A stretch of DNA of 64,000 nucleotides from Thiothrix sp. (GTDB lineage Bacteria; Pseudomonadota; Gammaproteobacteria; Poriferisulfidales; GCA-002705445): the NCBI GenBank assembly GCA_038141665.1, contig JAYQIN010000002.1, positions 336,843-400,842 of the forward strand. The letters run 5' to 3'. Both the position numbers and the translations under genes were made by a program. Shown in pieces: positions 34,444 to 43,845 of the stretch (its first letter is position 1; the number at the start of each line of letters is the position of its first letter). The notes below the pieces were generated by a model. It did no database searches, was not told the origin of the DNA, and was given only the letters and a program-made list of their open reading frames with translations.

Positions 34444-34528
34444 TGGTGGGCTAGGAGAGACTCGAACTCTCACGGGTTGCCCCACTGGTACCTAAAACCA
34501 GCGCGTATACCAATTCCGCCACTAGCCC
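34444..34528 (-). tRNA. tRNA-Leu (TAG), class II with a long variable arm
   Basis: The reverse complement GGGCTAGTGGCGGAATTGGTA... has the anticodon loop TTTAGGT, a long variable arm, a GAGTTCGAGTCTC T-arm and a CCA end. Confidence 0.8.
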
Positions 34529-34564
34529 AATAATGCAGTCGCACAATAATAAAATAAATAAATA

Positions 34565-35473
34565 ATGTACAATCTCACAATGTATTATAATACATGCATG
34601 AGTAGAATATTGTTCTTTACAATTTATATATTATTCTTTGCAGTGATATCATCACTGATTTTTTCCCTATTGTACATGCAATTTGATGAACAACCAATGC
34701 TAGCGCTAAATAAAGCCATTAAGTATGGTGCCATATTTCTTTGTATAATATTTATTGCTCCAACCCTAAAGTACCTTGGCATCTATAAAAAGGAGTTATT
34801 GGGATTCACTGAGAAAAAGATAATTTTTCTACTTAACACTTTAAAAGGATTTTCTTTAAGCATTATACTTTTACTGCCATTAATTTTCTTTTTTGATTTT
34901 TTTGAATTAAGAAATCTTAACAATCTTGATCTAATAACGGTTAACAGGACTTTTTTATATATCTTAATTTATACATTTTTAATAAGCTTCATAATTTCTT
35001 TTATTGAAGAATCATATTTTAGAGGAATCATGATTCAAAAGAAAAATAATTTGATTTCTATATGCCTTATAGTTGCTTTTAGTAGTCTAATTTATTCGTT
35101 ATTTCATTTTATAAAAATACCATTAATAATTGATGAAAAAATTTTTTGGAATACTGGTTTTTTGGAGTTATTACAAGTATTTTTTAATTTTTTTAAAACA
35201 ATAGAGTTTGATGCCGCTATAACACTTTTTGTTTTTGGAATTTTACTTGGAATTATTAGGCACAGACATCAAACTATATCTTATTGTATTGGCATACATG
35301 CCGGCTTTATTTTTTCTATAAAAACTTTTAAACAAAATTCTAGTGTGAATTTTAGCTCAGAATATAATTCGTGTTTAAGTTCATATGATCATTTTACTGG
35401 TAACATTGCTACATTATGGGTTTTGTTGGTTGTAATTTCATATTTAATATATATTTACAAAACCAAACAATAA
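34565..35473 (+). CDS. CPBP family (CAAX protease/Abi) intramembrane glutamic endopeptidase
   Basis: 302 aa, multi-TM, with all three CPBP motifs: EExxxR (FIEESYFRGIM), FxxxH (SLIYSLFHF) and HxxxN/D-like (GIHAGF). Confidence 0.75.
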   Translation: MYNLTMYYNTCMSRILFFTIYILFFAVISSLIFSLLYMQFDEQPMLALNKAIKYGAIFLCIIFIAPTLKYLGIYKKELLGFTEKKIIFLLNTLKGFSLSIILLLPLIFFFDFFELRNLNNLDLITVNRTFLYILIYTFLISFIISFIEESYFRGIMIQKKNNLISICLIVAFSSLIYSLFHFIKIPLIIDEKIFWNTGFLELLQVFFNFFKTIEFDAAITLFVFGILLGIIRHRHQTISYCIGIHAGFIFSIKTFKQNSSVNFSSEYNSCLSSYDHFTGNIATLWVLLVVISYLIYIYKTKQ

Positions 35474-35491
35474 CCCATAAAAATTAACAAT

Positions 35492-36880
35492 TTACATCAT
35501 AGTAGAAAACCCTACATTACATTTAAAATCTGGATCCATTTGGGGCCCATCTACGTCTTCATATATTGGAACACCGCATTGAATACCGATTCTTGATTTT
35601 GAATTTGGTAGTTTAAAATTTAAACCAATATTTGATGATACTCTTAAATGCGAATGAAAATATTCATTCCATGTTGGTGTATTATTATTTCTATTTGATG
35701 ATTTTCCATTAATATTATCTTGATGTTCAACGTCTAAACCAAATGACAAACTTACTGTCTGTGAAACTGGTTTTGCTACCCAAGCTGACAATTCTCTTCT
35801 ATCGCCATATCTCCAATCTTCACTGTTGTAGTCAAATCTTTTTGTTGCATTTAATTGAAAACCATATGACCAATCGTCATGTATTTCCTGAAAACTATAA
35901 CCTAATGTAAGATCATATGTTCCTGAGCCAAGCTGCATTGGATAAGGCAAAACTTTTCTCATTCCCATCATATTATGATCTTTTTCATCATATTCACCTG
36001 TGGGAATCGATAAGGAAGCTTTTAAATTAGATTTTCCTGATAGTTTATATAGTCCTGCAATACTCAAATCACCCATTCCCCTGCTACTTGTTTTATGTGT
36101 GTTTCCCACATTCATTCCTGACAATTTAACCATTTCCATTTCTTTTTCAATATAAGAAATCATAGCCATCAAAGAAATCTTATTATTAACTGCGTACATT
36201 GCACTAAACATATGCATATCCATAGTCATGTCAGTAGGAGCCATGCTAAACCCTAAATTTTTTATGAAATCATTACTAACTGAGCTTGTGCTATCTTTGC
36301 AACAGTCCATTTCCATGGTTCCATATTTATAACCAAACATGAGCTTTTTAGACATCATATTTTTTCCACCTTTTACCCCTGCTGGAAAAACGTAATCCGG
36401 GCGCGCCATATTTTTCATCATATGACCCATGTCACCCATATCCATTTTCATTTTCATTGCAGTCATTTTCTTTACTGTAAAGACTGAAGAAAATTCGTCT
36501 CCGCTTTTAGTAATAAACGTAACATCAATTTCTTGATTTTCTTTGAAATCTTCTTCAGGCATCATAAACATTAAATGATAACTCATTGGCCTAAACTCAA
36601 ATTTTGCATTTGCGCCAATTGTAACTGAATCTTGCTTTACCATTTTCATTACGTCACCATCTTTAACGGTATCGTGTATTTCCATAGAATTATATTTACT
36701 ACTAGAAACTCCTACTATAGTAATATCCTCATCAGAATTATTTGTAATAGTAAAATAACCAGCTGTCATATTTGCACCAGGTGGCATTAATCTAATTTTA
36801 GGGCTTTCTATTGTCACATCAACTGCGTTTGCTGCATTTGTTGTAAAAATAAAAGCGATTATTAAAAGTACTTTTTTCAT
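35492..36880 (-). CDS. Signal-peptide protein fusing a periplasmic PCu(A)C copper-chaperone domain, a Met-rich linker and a Met-rich outer-membrane beta-barrel domain
   Basis: Signal peptide MKKVLLIIAFIFTTNAANA. Residues about 20-135 match the PCu(A)C (DUF461) motif H(M)x10Mx21HxM exactly (IHDTVKDGDVMKM...21 aa...HLM). The linker is KMTAMKMKMDMGDMGHMMKNM. The C-terminal roughly 300 aa show alternating amphipathic beta-strands and aromatic girdles, with further Met clusters (MDMHM, MEMDCC, DHNMMGM). Confidence 0.7.
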   Translation of the reverse strand: MKKVLLIIAFIFTTNAANAVDVTIESPKIRLMPPGANMTAGYFTITNNSDEDITIVGVSSSKYNSMEIHDTVKDGDVMKMVKQDSVTIGANAKFEFRPMSYHLMFMMPEEDFKENQEIDVTFITKSGDEFSSVFTVKKMTAMKMKMDMGDMGHMMKNMARPDYVFPAGVKGGKNMMSKKLMFGYKYGTMEMDCCKDSTSSVSNDFIKNLGFSMAPTDMTMDMHMFSAMYAVNNKISLMAMISYIEKEMEMVKLSGMNVGNTHKTSSRGMGDLSIAGLYKLSGKSNLKASLSIPTGEYDEKDHNMMGMRKVLPYPMQLGSGTYDLTLGYSFQEIHDDWSYGFQLNATKRFDYNSEDWRYGDRRELSAWVAKPVSQTVSLSFGLDVEHQDNINGKSSNRNNNTPTWNEYFHSHLRVSSNIGLNFKLPNSKSRIGIQCGVPIYEDVDGPQMDPDFKCNVGFSTMM

Positions 36881-36902
36881 TTTTTTGTTCCTTTGTTTTA
36901 TA

Positions 36903-36923
36903 TATCACTAATTAGTAGTGATT
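36903..36923. promoter_or_regulatory. Near-perfect inverted repeat (ATCACTA-N5-TAGTGAT, extendable to about 9 bp arms), a candidate operator
   Basis: It lies about 25 bp upstream of the start codon of the PCu(A)C-barrel gene. Confidence 0.3.
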
Positions 36924-37015
36924 ATTTTATATTAAATTTGTGATTTATATAGCCAATTCTCACGAAAATAACTACCAAATTTTGATAGTAATAATTTTAT
37001 AAATTGAATAAGAAT

Positions 37016-37381
37016 TTAGATTTTGACTAGACTAGGTGGTGCTCTTATGAGGAAGTGATCATTAAGATTATTCTCATATATGTTATTTCTATTTATATCT
37101 GAAAAAGCATAAAAAACTTTTCTTTCTAATATGAAATTTTGCTTATTAAAAATGAAATTTGATTGAACATCCAGACAACAATGCATTATCTGAGAAACAT
37201 CTTGATTTTCATTATTAACACCTTGGTCGCTTACTAGAACTTTCTCTATGCCATAAGGCGTACACAAATTAATAAAACTATCTTCACTTCCTGAAATAGA
37301 TTGAGCAAAAACACCACTCAATTGTCCAAAAAGGATAGATGCTATTAAAAAGTTATTAATTTTTTTGACTTTAATACCCAT
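37016..37381 (-). CDS. Hypothetical small secreted protein with a signal peptide and 3 Cys
   Basis: 121 aa. Signal peptide ...GVFAQ, then a mature roughly 94-aa domain with CTPYG and HCC motifs. No recognised family. Confidence 0.4.
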   Translation of the reverse strand: MGIKVKKINNFLIASILFGQLSGVFAQSISGSEDSFINLCTPYGIEKVLVSDQGVNNENQDVSQIMHCCLDVQSNFIFNKQNFILERKVFYAFSDINRNNIYENNLNDHFLIRAPPSLVKI

Positions 37382-37413
37382 GAGAAAAAATTATATACAA
37401 ATTAGGTTTTTAA

Positions 37414-37809
37414 TCAATGAATTAAAATTAATAGTAGGATTGAAAATATAATAATTAGAAAATTAATGATTACTGACATCATATGAAGAATTTTAAATCT
37501 TCTTTGATTATTCACATCTCTTGATTTATTAATCAAAGGCATCAATAAATAATTACTAAATACAAATAAAAATAATATTAAAATTGAAATATATAGAATA
37601 TTTCCAGATTTTTCAGTATATAGCATTAAAATAGTTAAAATTAAATACTGCAAGCCATTGTATTTATAGTAAGTTGGAAATATAGATCTTACAAACTTTC
37701 CTGCTTCCTCATTTGAAAGGACAGTAAATATTTTGGGCGCTATTGCGATAGAAAAGAATAACATTGATCCTAATACTAAAGCAGGGATAATTTTGATTAG
37801 AAGTTCCAT
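37414..37809 (-). CDS. Hypothetical 4-TM inner-membrane protein, possibly DUF4149/TMEM205-like
   Basis: 131 aa with four predicted TM helices. Confidence 0.4.
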   Translation of the reverse strand: MELLIKIIPALVLGSMLFFSIAIAPKIFTVLSNEEAGKFVRSIFPTYYKYNGLQYLILTILMLYTEKSGNILYISILILFLFVFSNYLLMPLINKSRDVNNQRRFKILHMMSVIINFLIIIFSILLLILIH

Positions 37810-37894
37810 TTTTTATTCCAAATTTAATTATTTAAAATGAGCATAATTTAATTTTATTACTTATTTAACCTGTTCAAAATCATAATTATATTAA

Positions 37895-37971
37895 TGGGGC
37901 GAGAGACGGGGATCGAACCCGCGACAACCGGTACCACAAACCAGCGCTCTACCAACTGAGCTACTCCCGCC
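37895..37971 (-). tRNA. tRNA-His (GTG) with an encoded G-1
   Basis: The reverse complement G-GCGGGAGTAGCTCAGTTGGTAGAGC... has the anticodon loop TTGTGGT and a discriminator C followed by CCA. Confidence 0.75.
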
Positions 37972-37976
37972 ATGTA

Positions 37977-38054
37977 TGGCGCGCCTGGTAGGATTCGAAC
38001 CTACTACCCTCGGATTAGAAATCCGATGCTCTATCCAAATGAGCTACAGGCGCA
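37977..38054 (-). tRNA. tRNA-Arg (TCT)
   Basis: The reverse complement TGCGCCTGTAGCTCATTTGGATAGAGC... has the anticodon loop TTTCTAA, a GGTTCGAATCC T-arm and a CCA end. Confidence 0.75.
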
Positions 38055-38058
38055 TTAC

Positions 38059-38136
38059 TGGTCGGGGTAGAGGGATTTGAACCCCCGACATCCTGCTCCC
38101 AAAGCAGGCGCGCTACCAGACTGCGCTATACCCCGA
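38059..38136 (-). tRNA. tRNA-Pro (TGG)
   Basis: The reverse complement TCGGGGTATAGCGCAGTCTGGTAGCGC... has the anticodon loop TTTGGGA, a GGTTCAAATCC T-arm and a CCA end. Confidence 0.75.
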
Positions 38137-41380: not shown

Positions 41381-42831
41381 TTATGTAGAGTGTCTTTTCT
41401 TTTCTAAATCTTGAAAAAATTTATCATCAACATCGGTTAAATACTCACCTGTAAAAACTGAAGTCTCAAAATTTTTTATATTTTCATTTCCAGCTTGCAC
41501 TGCATACACCAAATCATCAAGATCTTGATATATTAATTTATCAGCCCCAATTTCTTTGCAGACCTCATTTATATTTTTTCCATTAGCTATTAAGTCGTTT
41601 TTGTTTGGCATATCAATACCATAAATATTTGGAAATTTAATTGGTGGAGAAGCAGATGCAAAATATACTTTTTTAGCTCCAGAGTCTCTTGCCATTTGGA
41701 CTATTTCTCTAGACGTCGTTCCTCTTACTATCGAATCATCTACTAAAAGCACATTCTTATTTTTGAATTCAGACACTAATGGATTTAATTTATAACGTAC
41801 AGATTTTTTCTCACAGCCTGGCCTTGCATTATAAAAGTTCTTCCAATATATCTATTCTTAATTAAGCCTTCTCTATAATTTTTATTAAGTCTTATAGCCA
41901 TTTCCAAAGCTGCTGTTCTACTAGTATCTGGTATCGGTATTATTACATCAATATCATTATCTGCCCATTCTCTTAAAATCTTATTAGCAAGCTGTTTACC
42001 CATTCTCATTCTTGCTTCTTGTACATTTACCCCATCAATTATTGAATCAGGCCTTGAGAAATATACATACTCAAATATACAAGGACTTAATTCAAAGCTT
42101 TTTGAATACCTAGAATTAAACATTTCGCCATCTGTGTTTATAAAAACTGATTCTCCAGGATCTAAATCTCTTACAGTTTCATATCCCAATAAATCTAATG
42201 CGACACTCTCTGAAGAAAGTATATAACTATAACCAACAGAGTTTTTTTTCTTTCCGAGAATCAAAGGCCTTATACCATGAATATCTCTAAATGCTACAAG
42301 TCCATATCCAGCAATCAAAGCTACAACAGCATATGCTCCAGAGCATCTGTTGTGAACACCATTAATAGCTTTGAAAATATCTGAAGCTTTAAATGATGAA
42401 GAATTAACATTAATCAATTCATGTGCAAAAATATTTAAAAGAACTTCTGTATCCGATTGAGTATGTATATGCCTTCTATCATTAATTAAAAGCTCTTTTC
42501 TAAGGGATTCTGCATTATCAAGATTTCCATTATGTGCTAGAGCTATACCATAAGGTGAGTTCACATAAAAAGGTTGAGCCTCATCTGTACTATGACTTCC
42601 AGCAGTTGGATAGCGCACATGGCCTATACCTAAATTACCTTTAAGATCCAACATATCATTAACGTCAAAAATATCATTAACGAGACCTTTTGCTTTCTTT
42701 TGATGTAGGTTTTTATCATGACATGTAGCTATTCCTGCTGAGTCTTGGCCTCGGTGCTGCAAAACAGTAAGACCATCAAATAGACTTTGATTTACAGATA
42801 CATCGTCAACTATTCCAATGATTCCACACAT
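41381..42831 (-). pseudogene. purF: Amidophosphoribosyltransferase PurF, split by one frameshift at a homopolymer that is probably a sequencing artefact
   Basis: The N-terminal ORF starts MCGIIGIV (Ntn glutamine amidotransferase) and runs to ...RYIGRTFIMQGQ. The C-terminal ORF (41381-41776) carries the PRTase motif VLLVDDSIVRGTT. The alternative frame reads through as [19 protein letters not shown], which matches E. coli [20 protein letters not shown]. The shift sits at an A6/T6 run near 41805-41810. Confidence 0.85.
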
Positions 42832-43297
42832 AAGGCAATTGTACACCATATTGTAAAAAATAATCTAAAAACAATGAGTTTTTATCTAAATTTAAAAAGT
42901 ATTCCAAAAAACTATAATAATTAGCCAATAATAAAAAAGCAGTAATATAAATAAATCCTTTAAAAAAACCAGCAAAAATGCCTAAGATTTTATTTAATAA
43001 TATGTTTTCTGAAAAAAATGAAAATCCAAATAATATATTTCTCAAGGAATAGTTTATGAATATTGCTATAAAGTATAATACTAAAGCAGAAAAAAAATAA
43101 TAAATGTATTTAGAATAATAATATTTATTTATATCTAATAAATTTCTAGATATTTTCTCAATATCTGAGATAAAAAAATAATAAAGAAATATAAATATAA
43201 AAATATTTATTATAGTTATTGACTCTTTTTTAAATCCTCTAAAAAATCCTAAAAAAGAGAAAATTAAAAGTAATAATAATACTATTAAATCTAGCAT
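42806..43297 (-). CDS. cvpA: Colicin V production protein CvpA
   Basis: 163-aa 4-TM membrane protein upstream of purF, the position cvpA holds in E. coli. Confidence 0.7.
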   Translation of the reverse strand: MLDLIVLLLLLIFSFLGFFRGFKKESITIINIFIFIFLYYFFISDIEKISRNLLDINKYYYSKYIYYFFSALVLYFIAIFINYSLRNILFGFSFFSENILLNKILGIFAGFFKGFIYITAFLLLANYYSFLEYFLNLDKNSLFLDYFLQYGVQLPYVWNHWNS

Positions 43298-43323
43298 ACA
43301 TTATTTTCCATATTAATTATTAA

Positions 43324-43845
43324 TTAATTTTTAAGATTTTGCTCTAAAATATAAGATTCACTAAAATTTTCATTTTTTATAATTTTTGAATAATTCTTTT
43401 TAACATCCTCAATTGAGAAAAAAGGCCCAATATTTACAGAATATAAATTTTTATTATCCTTTTTAGATTTAATTATAAATGATGATTTGTATGTTTTTTC
43501 AAGACTCTTAAGTTGATTCTGAGCGTTGCTTTTTTTTGAGAAAGAACCGACTCTTATAAGCCAAGTTGTTAAGTTAGATTCATTCTTTTTTTTATTATCT
43601 AAATCTTTATAACTTATTATTTTGCTGCTAGATTTTTTTTTAATTTCTTCTATTTTTATTGATTTTTCTTGATTTAACTCCTCCACTTCTTCAGAATATT
43701 TAAATATAATATTTTTTTGTTCTTTTATTTTTTTAAACTTCAGAGTTTTTTGTCCTGAACCTTCAAATAACATTGGGGCTATAATAGCCGCCAGCGCTAT
43801 TAATATTATTACTCCAACAATTCTATTTTTTAAAACTTCATTCAT
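43324..43845 (-). CDS. dedD: SPOR-domain cell-division protein (DedD-like)
   Basis: N-terminal TM anchor and a C-terminal SPOR domain (WLIRVGSFSKKSNAQNQLKSL). It lies between folC and cvpA as in E. coli. Confidence 0.7.
   Translation of the reverse strand: MNEVLKNRIVGVIILIALAAIIAPMLFEGSGQKTLKFKKIKEQKNIIFKYSEEVEELNQEKSIKIEEIKKKSSSKIISYKDLDNKKKNESNLTTWLIRVGSFSKKSNAQNQLKSLEKTYKSSFIIKSKKDNKNLYSVNIGPFFSIEDVKKNYSKIIKNENFSESYILEQNLKN

Follow-up and report, generated by a model that had tools for sequence, protein, structure and literature searches.

The window analysed here is a stretch of 64,000 nucleotides from a Thiothrix sp. genome (GCA_038141665.1, contig JAYQIN010000002.1). In it a tRNA-Pro, tRNA-Arg and tRNA-His cluster is separated from tRNA-Leu by 3,366 bp, which contain exactly four open reading frames (ORFs). 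Three of these encode a DUF4149 membrane protein, a 121-aa exported protein and a 462-aa protein in which a PCuAC copper-chaperone domain is fused to an outer-membrane beta-barrel; the fourth encodes a CPBP (Rce1-like) protein and lies on the opposite strand (Table 1). We propose, with moderate confidence, that the three-gene cassette serves copper acquisition, and that its core consists of the 121-aa leader candidate and the PCuAC-barrel fusion. Sequence comparison indicates that the locus is ancestral and position-fixed across a clade of low-GC marine Gammaproteobacteria rather than a foreign insertion, and that the cassette has repeatedly been exchanged among lineages through homologous recombination, with the tRNA cluster as the probable anchor.

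The metal site of the PCuAC domain, H-x10-M-x21-H-x-M, is intact in the fusion protein (H69, M80 and H102-L-M104). The domain matches the solved PCuACs AccA, DR1885, ECuC and TtPCuAC in the PDB by sequence. The N-terminal half of the AlphaFold2 (AF2) model fits solved PCuACs, with template-modelling scores of 0.90 for AccA (9YAH), 0.89 for ECuC (3ZJA) and 0.85 for TtPCuAC (2K6W). Cu(I) binding by this domain and hand-over to Sco or CuA are its predicted functions.

The domain is followed by a Met-rich linker. Met density within residues 131-160 reaches 8 per 20 residues, and the first barrel strands contain more MxMxMHM strings; Met makes up 9.3% of the fusion protein vs 1-4.6% of neighbouring proteins. 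The segment preceding strand 1 contains a conserved RPD..P.GV motif and is His/Met-rich in stand-alone relatives of the barrel. The AF2 model of the fusion, built from 71 sequences, has a predicted local distance difference test (pLDDT) score of 85.9, which drops below 50 at linker residues 141-154. In Foldseek the barrel half matches FapF (5O67, E=1.9e-14) and the COG4313 channel Pput2725 (4RL8, E=6.5e-14); judging from the model, it is probably a FapF/COG4313-like barrel of the 12-stranded type. In Pput2725, the stretch equivalent to this pre-strand segment, some 14 residues long, is folded into the lumen from the periplasmic side. The Pfam family PF13557 gives no hit for the window fusion at E<=1, and near-identical orthologues have only a precomputed hit rated 'faint'; barrel homologues that are 35-40% identical do carry PF13557.

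The barrel belongs to a Met/His-rich subfamily of COG4313/PF13557. M181, M189, M218, M222-H223-M224 and M248 are invariant in the 71 sequences, which include stand-alone barrels only 33-40% identical; the same columns are invariant when stand-alone barrels are aligned by themselves. A barrel search of 1.84 billion representatives retrieves 8,702 relatives with E<=1e-3, while 255 representative clusters reach E<=1e-30; the window fusion family forms one cluster at 50% in that set. Longer relatives within the subfamily carry additional modules at the N-terminus: independently acquired PCuAC domains (P0151, P0260), NosL (P0065, P0129, P0146, L071, L085), CusF (P0141) and YtkA-like domains (P0147, P0212). 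A CusF-barrel gene is also found in an operon of the form CusF::SCO1/SenC - CusF::barrel - NnrS (L107:2133-5508). Since the barrel is repeatedly fused to different periplasmic copper-binding domains, there is strong guilt-by-fusion evidence that it would handle copper. Most of these partners (PCuAC, NosL, Sco) are chaperones of cuproenzyme assembly.

The 121-aa ORF resembles leaders of the CruR/CutF (DUF2946) type, although in divergent form, and is a candidate copper sensor. Orthologues were compared from six genomes (the window, L003, L004, L006, L008 and L009). Apart from the L008 copy they are 26-40% identical, and three landmarks are invariant in all six: C40-T-x-x-G-I, C68-C69-x-D, and an RAPP motif 3-5 residues before the stop codon. 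The spacing from CC to RAPP is 43-44 aa throughout. By inspection, all of the orthologues have a hydrophobic N-terminus ending in VFAQS. In the six frames of the window, the 121-aa ORF is the sole ORF that terminates in R[AS]PP. The spacer between the leader and the PCuAC-barrel gene is 63-135 nt among orthologues.

Related leaders are found before related barrels. In L014, a bona fide DUF2946 gene (25.8 bits) with a Cys-RAPP spacing of 46 aa lies directly upstream of a stand-alone barrel; a borderline DUF2946 gene has the same position in L017. The independent PCuAC-barrel fusion P0151 (L105) is 31% identical to the window fusion and has an unrelated genomic context. It is preceded, at a distance of 160 nt, by a Pfam DUF2946 gene with ICTGRG, CPMC and RAPP motifs at 45-aa spacing. 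Across 80 metagenome loci with stand-alone barrels, leader-like ORFs, defined by an export-type N-terminus, at least two Cys and R[AS]PP or PPxPP at the C-terminus, lie ahead of 9 of 70 barrels and 1 of 216 other genes (Fisher p=1.7e-5). One RSPP-ending, CC-containing family upstream of stand-alone barrels has a weak end-to-end match to the leader profile (E=8e-4, probability 25%).

Two further small ORFs were observed at loci with stand-alone barrels. A family of about 124 aa lies directly upstream of the barrel gene at several loci (Table 1); it has a CINK...CNGKC motif and a C-terminal SPPTPPPK[CY], and gives no Pfam hit. It may be another class of proline-stalling, metal-sensing leader. 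The only leader-like ORF among the control genes (L023:3852-4187) has a CDHYCH motif and ends in QPPTPPPNS; it precedes a 421-aa ORF just downstream of the barrel, which may be a second gene under regulation there.

The spacer between leader and fusion in the window contains a 7-bp hairpin about 10 nt upstream of the Shine-Dalgarno (SD) sequence of the fusion gene. Compensatory changes maintain it in L008 (ATCACTG/CAGTGAT) and L004 (ACCATAA/TTATGGT), whereas the shorter spacers of L003, L006 and L009 lack the hairpin. Neither a CutF-type nor a CruR/Rho-type mechanism can be assigned on this basis, as the hairpin is present in three of the six orthologues and leaves the SD sequence uncovered.

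The initial annotation suggested a copper-handling or envelope module. For the minus-strand genes this agrees with the intact Cu(I) motif, the Met/His-rich linker and barrel, and the CruR-like leader. In the mechanism that we propose, thioether and imidazole ligands would line the path by which Cu(I) diffuses through the TonB-independent barrel. The Met-rich tether and the pre-strand segment would relay the ion; in the archetype, the pre-strand segment sits in the lumen. The tethered PCuAC domain would then capture Cu(I) and act as a periplasmic sink, from which copper could be donated to Sco or CuA-type clients. The nascent leader may sense copper co-translationally and tune expression of the fusion. 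By analogy with cruR-crtA, copper would most likely repress the fusion. We infer copper as the substrate and uptake as the direction of transport, and the sign and mechanism of regulation are part of the same proposal. More tentatively, the whole Met/His-rich branch of COG4313/PF13557 could be a widespread and hitherto unrecognised class of TonB-independent, Cu(I)-selective channels that hand copper directly to PCuAC, NosL, CusF and Sco proteins, with the chaperone tethered in several lineages and expression often gated by CruR/CutF-type sensors.

Several observations weigh against copper acquisition under the control of a leader. With respect to the leader, the DUF2946 model PF11162 gives no hit at E<=10 for the window protein and the four orthologues tested; the orthologues have an adjacent CC pair and not CXXC; and hhalign of the leader against true DUF2946 aligns the RAPP motif only. 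The leader is also dispensable, as four relatives carry a reverse ORF in its place and one carries nothing. The fold of the spacer is unexceptional (z=-0.87), with no SD-masking stem-loop. With respect to copper, a motif search finds no Sco or CuA client in the 64-kb window, and most stand-alone barrels have no obvious copper gene adjoining; in four complete genomes, no consistent copper genes are found alongside them. The CusF fusion is equally compatible with detoxification, and characterised COG4313 members have been proposed to carry hydrophobic compounds. CutF-like clusters have, for their part, been reported with varied Cys/His sites.

The same parts could be arranged as a detoxification vent, in which the barrel lets periplasmic Cu(I) out, PCuAC feeds it and the leader induces expression at high copper. 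Passive channels work in either direction by nature; the genes most often found behind CutF-like leaders are efflux components, and in the presence of copper CutO is activated by CutF. One member of the subfamily is fused to CusF, a chaperone of an efflux pathway. We nevertheless consider a vent unlikely. The fusion and operon partners of the barrel are mainly the cuproenzyme-assembly chaperones PCuAC, NosL and SCO1, and no gene for CopA, Cus or a multicopper oxidase is found nearby. Among analogues with an outer-membrane importer the closest is cruR-crtA, which copper represses. In addition, free copper in the open ocean is extremely low, so that a need for detoxification is unlikely to explain why a streamlined genome retains the locus.

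An alternative for the 121-aa protein is that it is a stable periplasmic copper-binding or thiol partner of the fusion and not a regulatory leader. In favour of this, the protein carries a signal peptide as well as three conserved Cys, has no Pfam DUF2946 match and is dispensable in five relatives. Its gene is second in the row, after that for DUF4149, while cruR is typically first. However, only the CruR/CutF landmarks and the exact RAPP spacing are kept, and the remainder of the protein drifts to 26-40% identity; this pattern is more in keeping with a nascent-chain sensor than with a folded protein. The same position before homologous barrels is also occupied by canonical DUF2946 leaders. 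A stable partner is accordingly the less probable identity, at about the level of the vent.

The components of the cassette resemble several known systems. In the cruR-crtA(bfrG)-PepSY_TM operon of Bordetella pertussis, a TonB-dependent transporter for copper is repressed by CruR in the presence of the metal; CruR has a Cys-RAPP spacing of 45 aa and is followed by a 162-nt spacer (PMC9426467, PMC12914433). More than 40% of crtA copper-uptake operons begin with cruR; some crtA operons also include PCuAC or ScoI genes and supply heme-copper oxidases (PMC9426467, PMC12914433). The window locus shares with cruR-crtA a small exported leader-like ORF with a Cys motif, a C-terminal RAPP at fixed spacing and a long spacer, followed by an outer-membrane protein, which in that operon is a copper importer. 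It differs from cruR-crtA in having a TonB-independent FapF/COG4313 barrel of about 280 aa instead of a 22-stranded TonB-dependent transporter. The chaperone is fused, the leader has CC in place of CXXC and falls below the Pfam threshold, the DUF4149 gene comes first and there is no PepSY_TM gene.

In the CutF-CutO system (cutFOG) of Rhodobacter capsulatus, CutF switches on a detoxifying multicopper oxidase by opening a stem-loop that masks the SD sequence; across the CutF-like/DUF2946 set, the genes found most often downstream include PCuAC and TonB-type genes (PMC9973294). Like CutF, the leader candidate would be an exported nascent sensor with a proline-rich C-terminal stalling motif ahead of the gene that it controls. 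In contrast to CutF, the hairpin of the window locus leaves the SD sequence free and is missing from half of the orthologues.

The barrel matches the fold of Pput2725 (4RL8), a COG4313/PF13557 channel like SphA and TcpY, and that of FapF (E ~1e-14). In COG4313 channels and FapF, which are 12-stranded barrels, an N-terminal segment occupies the lumen and comes in from the periplasm; FapF has in addition an N-terminal domain in the periplasm, attached by a linker. Unlike these members, to which hydrophobic substrates or amyloid secretion are assigned, the window barrel and its relatives have Met/His clusters (APTDMTMDMHM...) and copper-chaperone fusions. The PCuAC half shares domain, motif and fold with Thermus thermophilus PCuAC, Bradyrhizobium japonicum PcuC, Neisseria gonorrhoeae AccA and Streptomyces lividans ECuC; those chaperones are stand-alone soluble or lipid-anchored proteins, whereas here PCuAC is the N-terminal module of an outer-membrane protein. 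Copper passage through the outer membrane along Met/His (and Cys) ligands, as proposed here, is also a feature of OprC/NosA and PcoB/CopB; OprC has a CxxxM-HxM Cu(I) site. These proteins have unrelated folds and no sequence kinship to the barrel, and OprC/NosA differ in energetics as well.

A full-text literature search found no paper that describes a fusion of a barrel with a PCuAC chaperone or with NosL, and no paper that ties COG4313/PF13557 barrels to copper; DUF4149 received incidental mentions only. The components are known, while their combination and the assignment of this barrel branch to copper appear to be new.

Stand-alone Met-rich barrels are also found next to two-component genes, at L013, L015, L022, L041 and about 10 more metagenome loci. 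A sensor kinase with 6TM_PilS-HisKA-HATPase architecture lies beside them at 15 loci, and a REC-HTH_8 response regulator of about 180 aa at 13 loci; we take this architecture to resemble that of the redox/oxidase regulators RegB/RegA (PrrBA, RoxSR). At L107, the two CusF domains belong to two different copper proteins.

The gene content, order and strands between the tRNA genes are as first described; ARAGORN, Rfam, the ORF map and Pfam agree on them, and Pfam upholds the earlier PCuAC and Rce1-like/CPBP domain calls. All four tRNA genes are backed by Rfam, at 57-72 bits vs a gathering score of 29. Rfam finds six tRNAs in the window and neither a riboswitch nor a known leader RNA. The interval is flanked by tig-clpP-clpX on one side and ppiB-lpxH on the other. 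Coding of the locus ORFs is conserved across more than 10 related genomes; the four ORFs are consequently real genes and not chance ORFs.

Relatives were fetched from a species-representative genome collection with Tig as the anchor. This yielded, from this clade only, eight uncultured marine gammaproteobacterial metagenome-assembled genomes (MAGs) and single-amplified genomes (SAGs) with Tig 73-85% identical. Seven of the eight have the order Pro-Arg-His, DUF4149, slot, PCuAC-barrel, CPBP (opposite strand), Leu, tig; the eighth is a truncated contig with the same genes. A further SAG contig, L010, has the same arrangement. The most divergent carrier of the fusion is L009, with identities of 50-52% for the fusion, ~48% for Tig and ~81% for ClpX. 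It has the same ppiB-tig slot and keeps the leader, fusion, CPBP and tRNA-Leu genes, without DUF4149. In L009 an extra tRNA-Lys(ctt) follows tRNA-His (L009:7474-7546). At all loci examined (L001-L010, L096-L103) the locus is in the same place, the Pro-Arg-His cluster is kept in all relatives, and the tRNA genes are split in the same way in every relative found.

Composition is native as well. The genes of the cassette region have a GC content of 0.23-0.33 and a third-codon-position GC content (GC3) of 0.19-0.25, compared with a window GC3 of 0.187 +/- 0.029; codon-usage distances of the locus genes scale with gene length, as they do for neighbouring genes. No deviation in GC or codon usage is seen, with values inside the range of the window. 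No att-like repeats are found at the locus, only AT-rich repeats at chance level, and there are no phage-family, integrase or mobility genes among the locus ORFs. In the long-read MAG LRMED-300 (L002:3400-5920), lpxH, a glxK-like gene and a YkuD gene each appear in several tblastn fragments; these are probably sequencing-error frameshifts and not pseudogenes.

Within this fixed locus, alleles have been exchanged. Nucleotide identity between the window and L008 is ~80% over 16 kb but rises to 94-100% from ~35.5 to ~38.0 kb, a tract that covers the fusion gene, the leader, the DUF4149 gene and the edge of the tRNA cluster; just past the tRNA cluster, identity returns to ~80%. The proteins show the same pattern: the fusion is 96% and DUF4149 97% identical between the window and L008, compared with 80% for Tig, 78% for PpiB and 59% for CPBP. 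A second, independent discordance is found in L001. Its cassette groups with those of L005, L007 and L010 (DUF4149 94-95%, fusion 77-79%), while for Tig and CPBP it groups with the window and L002.

Both haplotypes are present in independent assemblies, which shows that the discordance is not due to MAG chimerism. The window haplotype is found at ~98% in another MAG, L096 (GCA_038143975.1), and in independent Joint Genome Institute (JGI) contigs spanning the cassette-CPBP junction. The L008 haplotype is found at 99-100% in the Logan assembly of a different run (L103), in which identity to the window falls from 94-100% to ~66% at the fusion/CPBP boundary. Judging from these alignments, the exchanged unit consists of DUF4149, the slot and the fusion, and CPBP lies outside it. 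It extends from the tRNA cluster to the 18-bp convergent gap. Upstream, the cassette is bounded by the Pro-Arg-His cluster, which probably provides the homology that anchors recombination.

The content of the slot between DUF4149 and the fusion varies. The window and the other five leader carriers have the 121-aa ORF; L001, L005, L007 and L010 have an opposite-strand ORF of about 130 aa, unrelated to the leader; L002 has about 150 bp and no ORF. The reverse ORF (L010:5385-5777, minus strand) gives no Pfam or PHROG hit.

The remaining two genes have different relations to the cassette. DUF4149 co-transfers with it. The protein scores 35.7 bits against a Pfam cut-off of 24.6, and its AF2 model (pLDDT 89) is a four-helix inner-membrane bundle with four transmembrane helices, for which the PDB holds no significant solved-structure match. 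It has no Cys and one invariant His (H109); no metal site is evident and no link to copper is established. A homologue search finds it in the same clade only. DUF2946, DUF4149 and CopD had been named as families against which to profile the 131-aa and 121-aa proteins; the DUF4149 match stands, DUF2946 is not matched, and there is no CopD hit in Pfam or NCBIfam.

The CPBP protein is a predicted intramembrane protease (40.4 bits against a cut-off of 22.4 for PF02517). In its EExxxR, FxxxH and H motifs, E148-E149..R153, F180-H181 and H245 are invariant; NCBIfam gives generic MrtJ/MrtS similarity far below cut-offs and nothing specific. Orthologues suggest that the start, within 34565-34680, is probably at M12 (MSRILFF) or M38 (MQFDEQP), which would widen the gap to tRNA-Leu. 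The initial annotation counted CPBP as a module member, with an immunity function as one option. All four genes might then form one unit, with CPBP processing or protecting the fusion, or conferring immunity; CPBP is adjacent in every clade member and its catalytic motifs are conserved. Three points make this very unlikely: CPBP runs convergently to the cassette from the opposite strand; both recombination tracts exclude it and break off sharply in the shared 3' gap; and it is not found with related barrels or fusions elsewhere. It is treated here as an unrelated neighbour of the cassette. Because the antisense CPBP gene sits between them, tRNA-Leu is probably a transcription unit apart from Pro-Arg-His.

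Import of a hydrophobic organic compound by the barrel, as in other COG4313 channels, with PCuAC functionally unrelated or merely structural, is likewise very unlikely. There is family precedent in TcpY, SphA and the detergent inside Pput2725, and many stand-alone members have no copper gene nearby. Against this, the Met/His columns are invariant, fusions of the barrel with periplasmic metal-binding domains arose on at least four separate occasions, enrichment of DUF2946-type leaders is seen upstream of it and the PCuAC metal site is intact under long divergence.

The idea that the locus is a recent islet, a foreign four-gene block inserted at a tRNA hotspot that splits a contiguous Pro-Arg-His-Leu operon, came from the initial annotation and is hardly tenable: tRNA genes do bracket the block, a compact Arg-His-Leu-Pro operon exists in E. 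coli and the cassette phylogeny is discordant with its flanks, but the layout is identical in every relative down to the divergence of L009, GC and GC3 are native, no integrase, phage-family hit or att-like repeat is found, and the discordance is allele replacement in a fixed slot, with CPBP excluded, and not presence/absence. What survives of the proposed mobility is an exchangeable unit bounded by the tRNA cluster, which moves by homologous allele replacement and not by insertion. The enteric operon cited in support, argX(CCG)-hisR-leuT(CAG)-proM, is real, and the same four amino acids (Arg, His, Leu, Pro) are represented among its tRNA genes, but by position it is not orthologous to this cluster. 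Its order is Arg-His-Leu-Pro with Arg(CCG) and Leu(CAG) in a thrP-aslB neighbourhood, whereas the window has Arg(UCU) and Leu(UAG) between ppiB and tig. The enteric operon is therefore uninformative on the ancestral state here.

A promoter and terminator scan of the locus gives no excess of sites over shuffled sequence (25 vs 26.1), with no minus-strand terminator. The DUF4149 gene may be co-transcribed with the tRNAs, since no terminator-like site is found between tRNA-His and this gene. The best sigma-70-like match, TTGATT-16-TATAAT (10/12), is at 37390-37417 on the minus strand; it overlaps the end of the DUF4149 gene and lies just upstream of the leader start. Elsewhere in the window, a GC trough of 0.15-0.20 (surroundings ~0.30) is found at 42800-43400, in or next to the ORFs 42806-43297 and 43324-43845.

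Table 1. Features of the tRNA-flanked locus (window coordinates) and members of the ~124-aa ORF family (locus coordinates)
Feature	Position	Strand	Basis or remark
tRNA-Leu(tag)	34444-34528	minus	ARAGORN and Rfam; immediately upstream of tig
CPBP (Rce1-like) ORF	34565-35473	plus	Pfam E=4e-10
PCuAC-barrel fusion, 462 aa	35492-36880	minus	PCuAC Pfam E=3e-29
Outer-membrane beta-barrel, aa 179-462 plus stop	35492-36346	minus	Foldseek; Met/His-rich COG4313/PF13557 subfamily
Met-rich linker and pre-strand-1 segment, aa 131-178	36347-36490	minus	Met density, conservation
PCuAC Cu(I)-chaperone domain, aa 25-129	36494-36808	minus	Pfam PF04314, 101.7 bits vs cut-off 29.4
Leader-fusion spacer, 135 nt	36881-37015	minus	SD AAGGA at 36889-36893
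7-bp hairpin ATCACTA/TAGTGAT	36904-36922	minus	~10 nt upstream of the fusion SD
121-aa exported ORF (leader candidate)	37016-37381	minus	no Pfam hit
Leader landmark R113-A-P-P116	37034-37045	minus	five codons before the stop
Leader landmark H67-C68-C69	37175-37183	minus	
Leader landmark C40-T-x-x-G44		minus	
DUF4149 protein, 131 aa	37414-37809	minus	Pfam PF13664 E=1e-8
tRNA-His(gtg)	37895-37970	minus	ARAGORN and Rfam
tRNA-Arg(tct)	37977-38053	minus	ARAGORN and Rfam
tRNA-Pro(tgg)	38059-38135	minus	ARAGORN and Rfam
~124-aa ORF family	L079:115-489		
~124-aa ORF family	L083:2649-3023		
~124-aa ORF family	L084:3460-3834		
~124-aa ORF family	L089:3551-3925		
~124-aa ORF family	L090:3460-3834		

Genes located between tRNA genes need not be an island. 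The conservation of the cassette and its exchange between species in an abundant, streamlined clade suggest ongoing selection on copper acquisition in the surface ocean. The leader would extend the CruR/CutF sensor family past the Pfam model, with CC for CXXC, and to a new class of regulated genes.

Copper passage over the Gram-negative outer membrane is among the less resolved steps of copper homeostasis. A 2020 review lists general porins, TonB-dependent transporters of the NosA/OprC type and chalkophores as the outer-membrane routes; a small Met/His barrel with copper-chaperone fusions and leaders is a candidate fourth route. If this is true, the fusion is a natural case of channel-to-chaperone metal hand-off in one polypeptide, and the window contains the most compact version of such channels. 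The barrel may then be the main copper route to the respiratory oxidases of abundant, streamlined ocean bacteria, with alleles that sweep between species.

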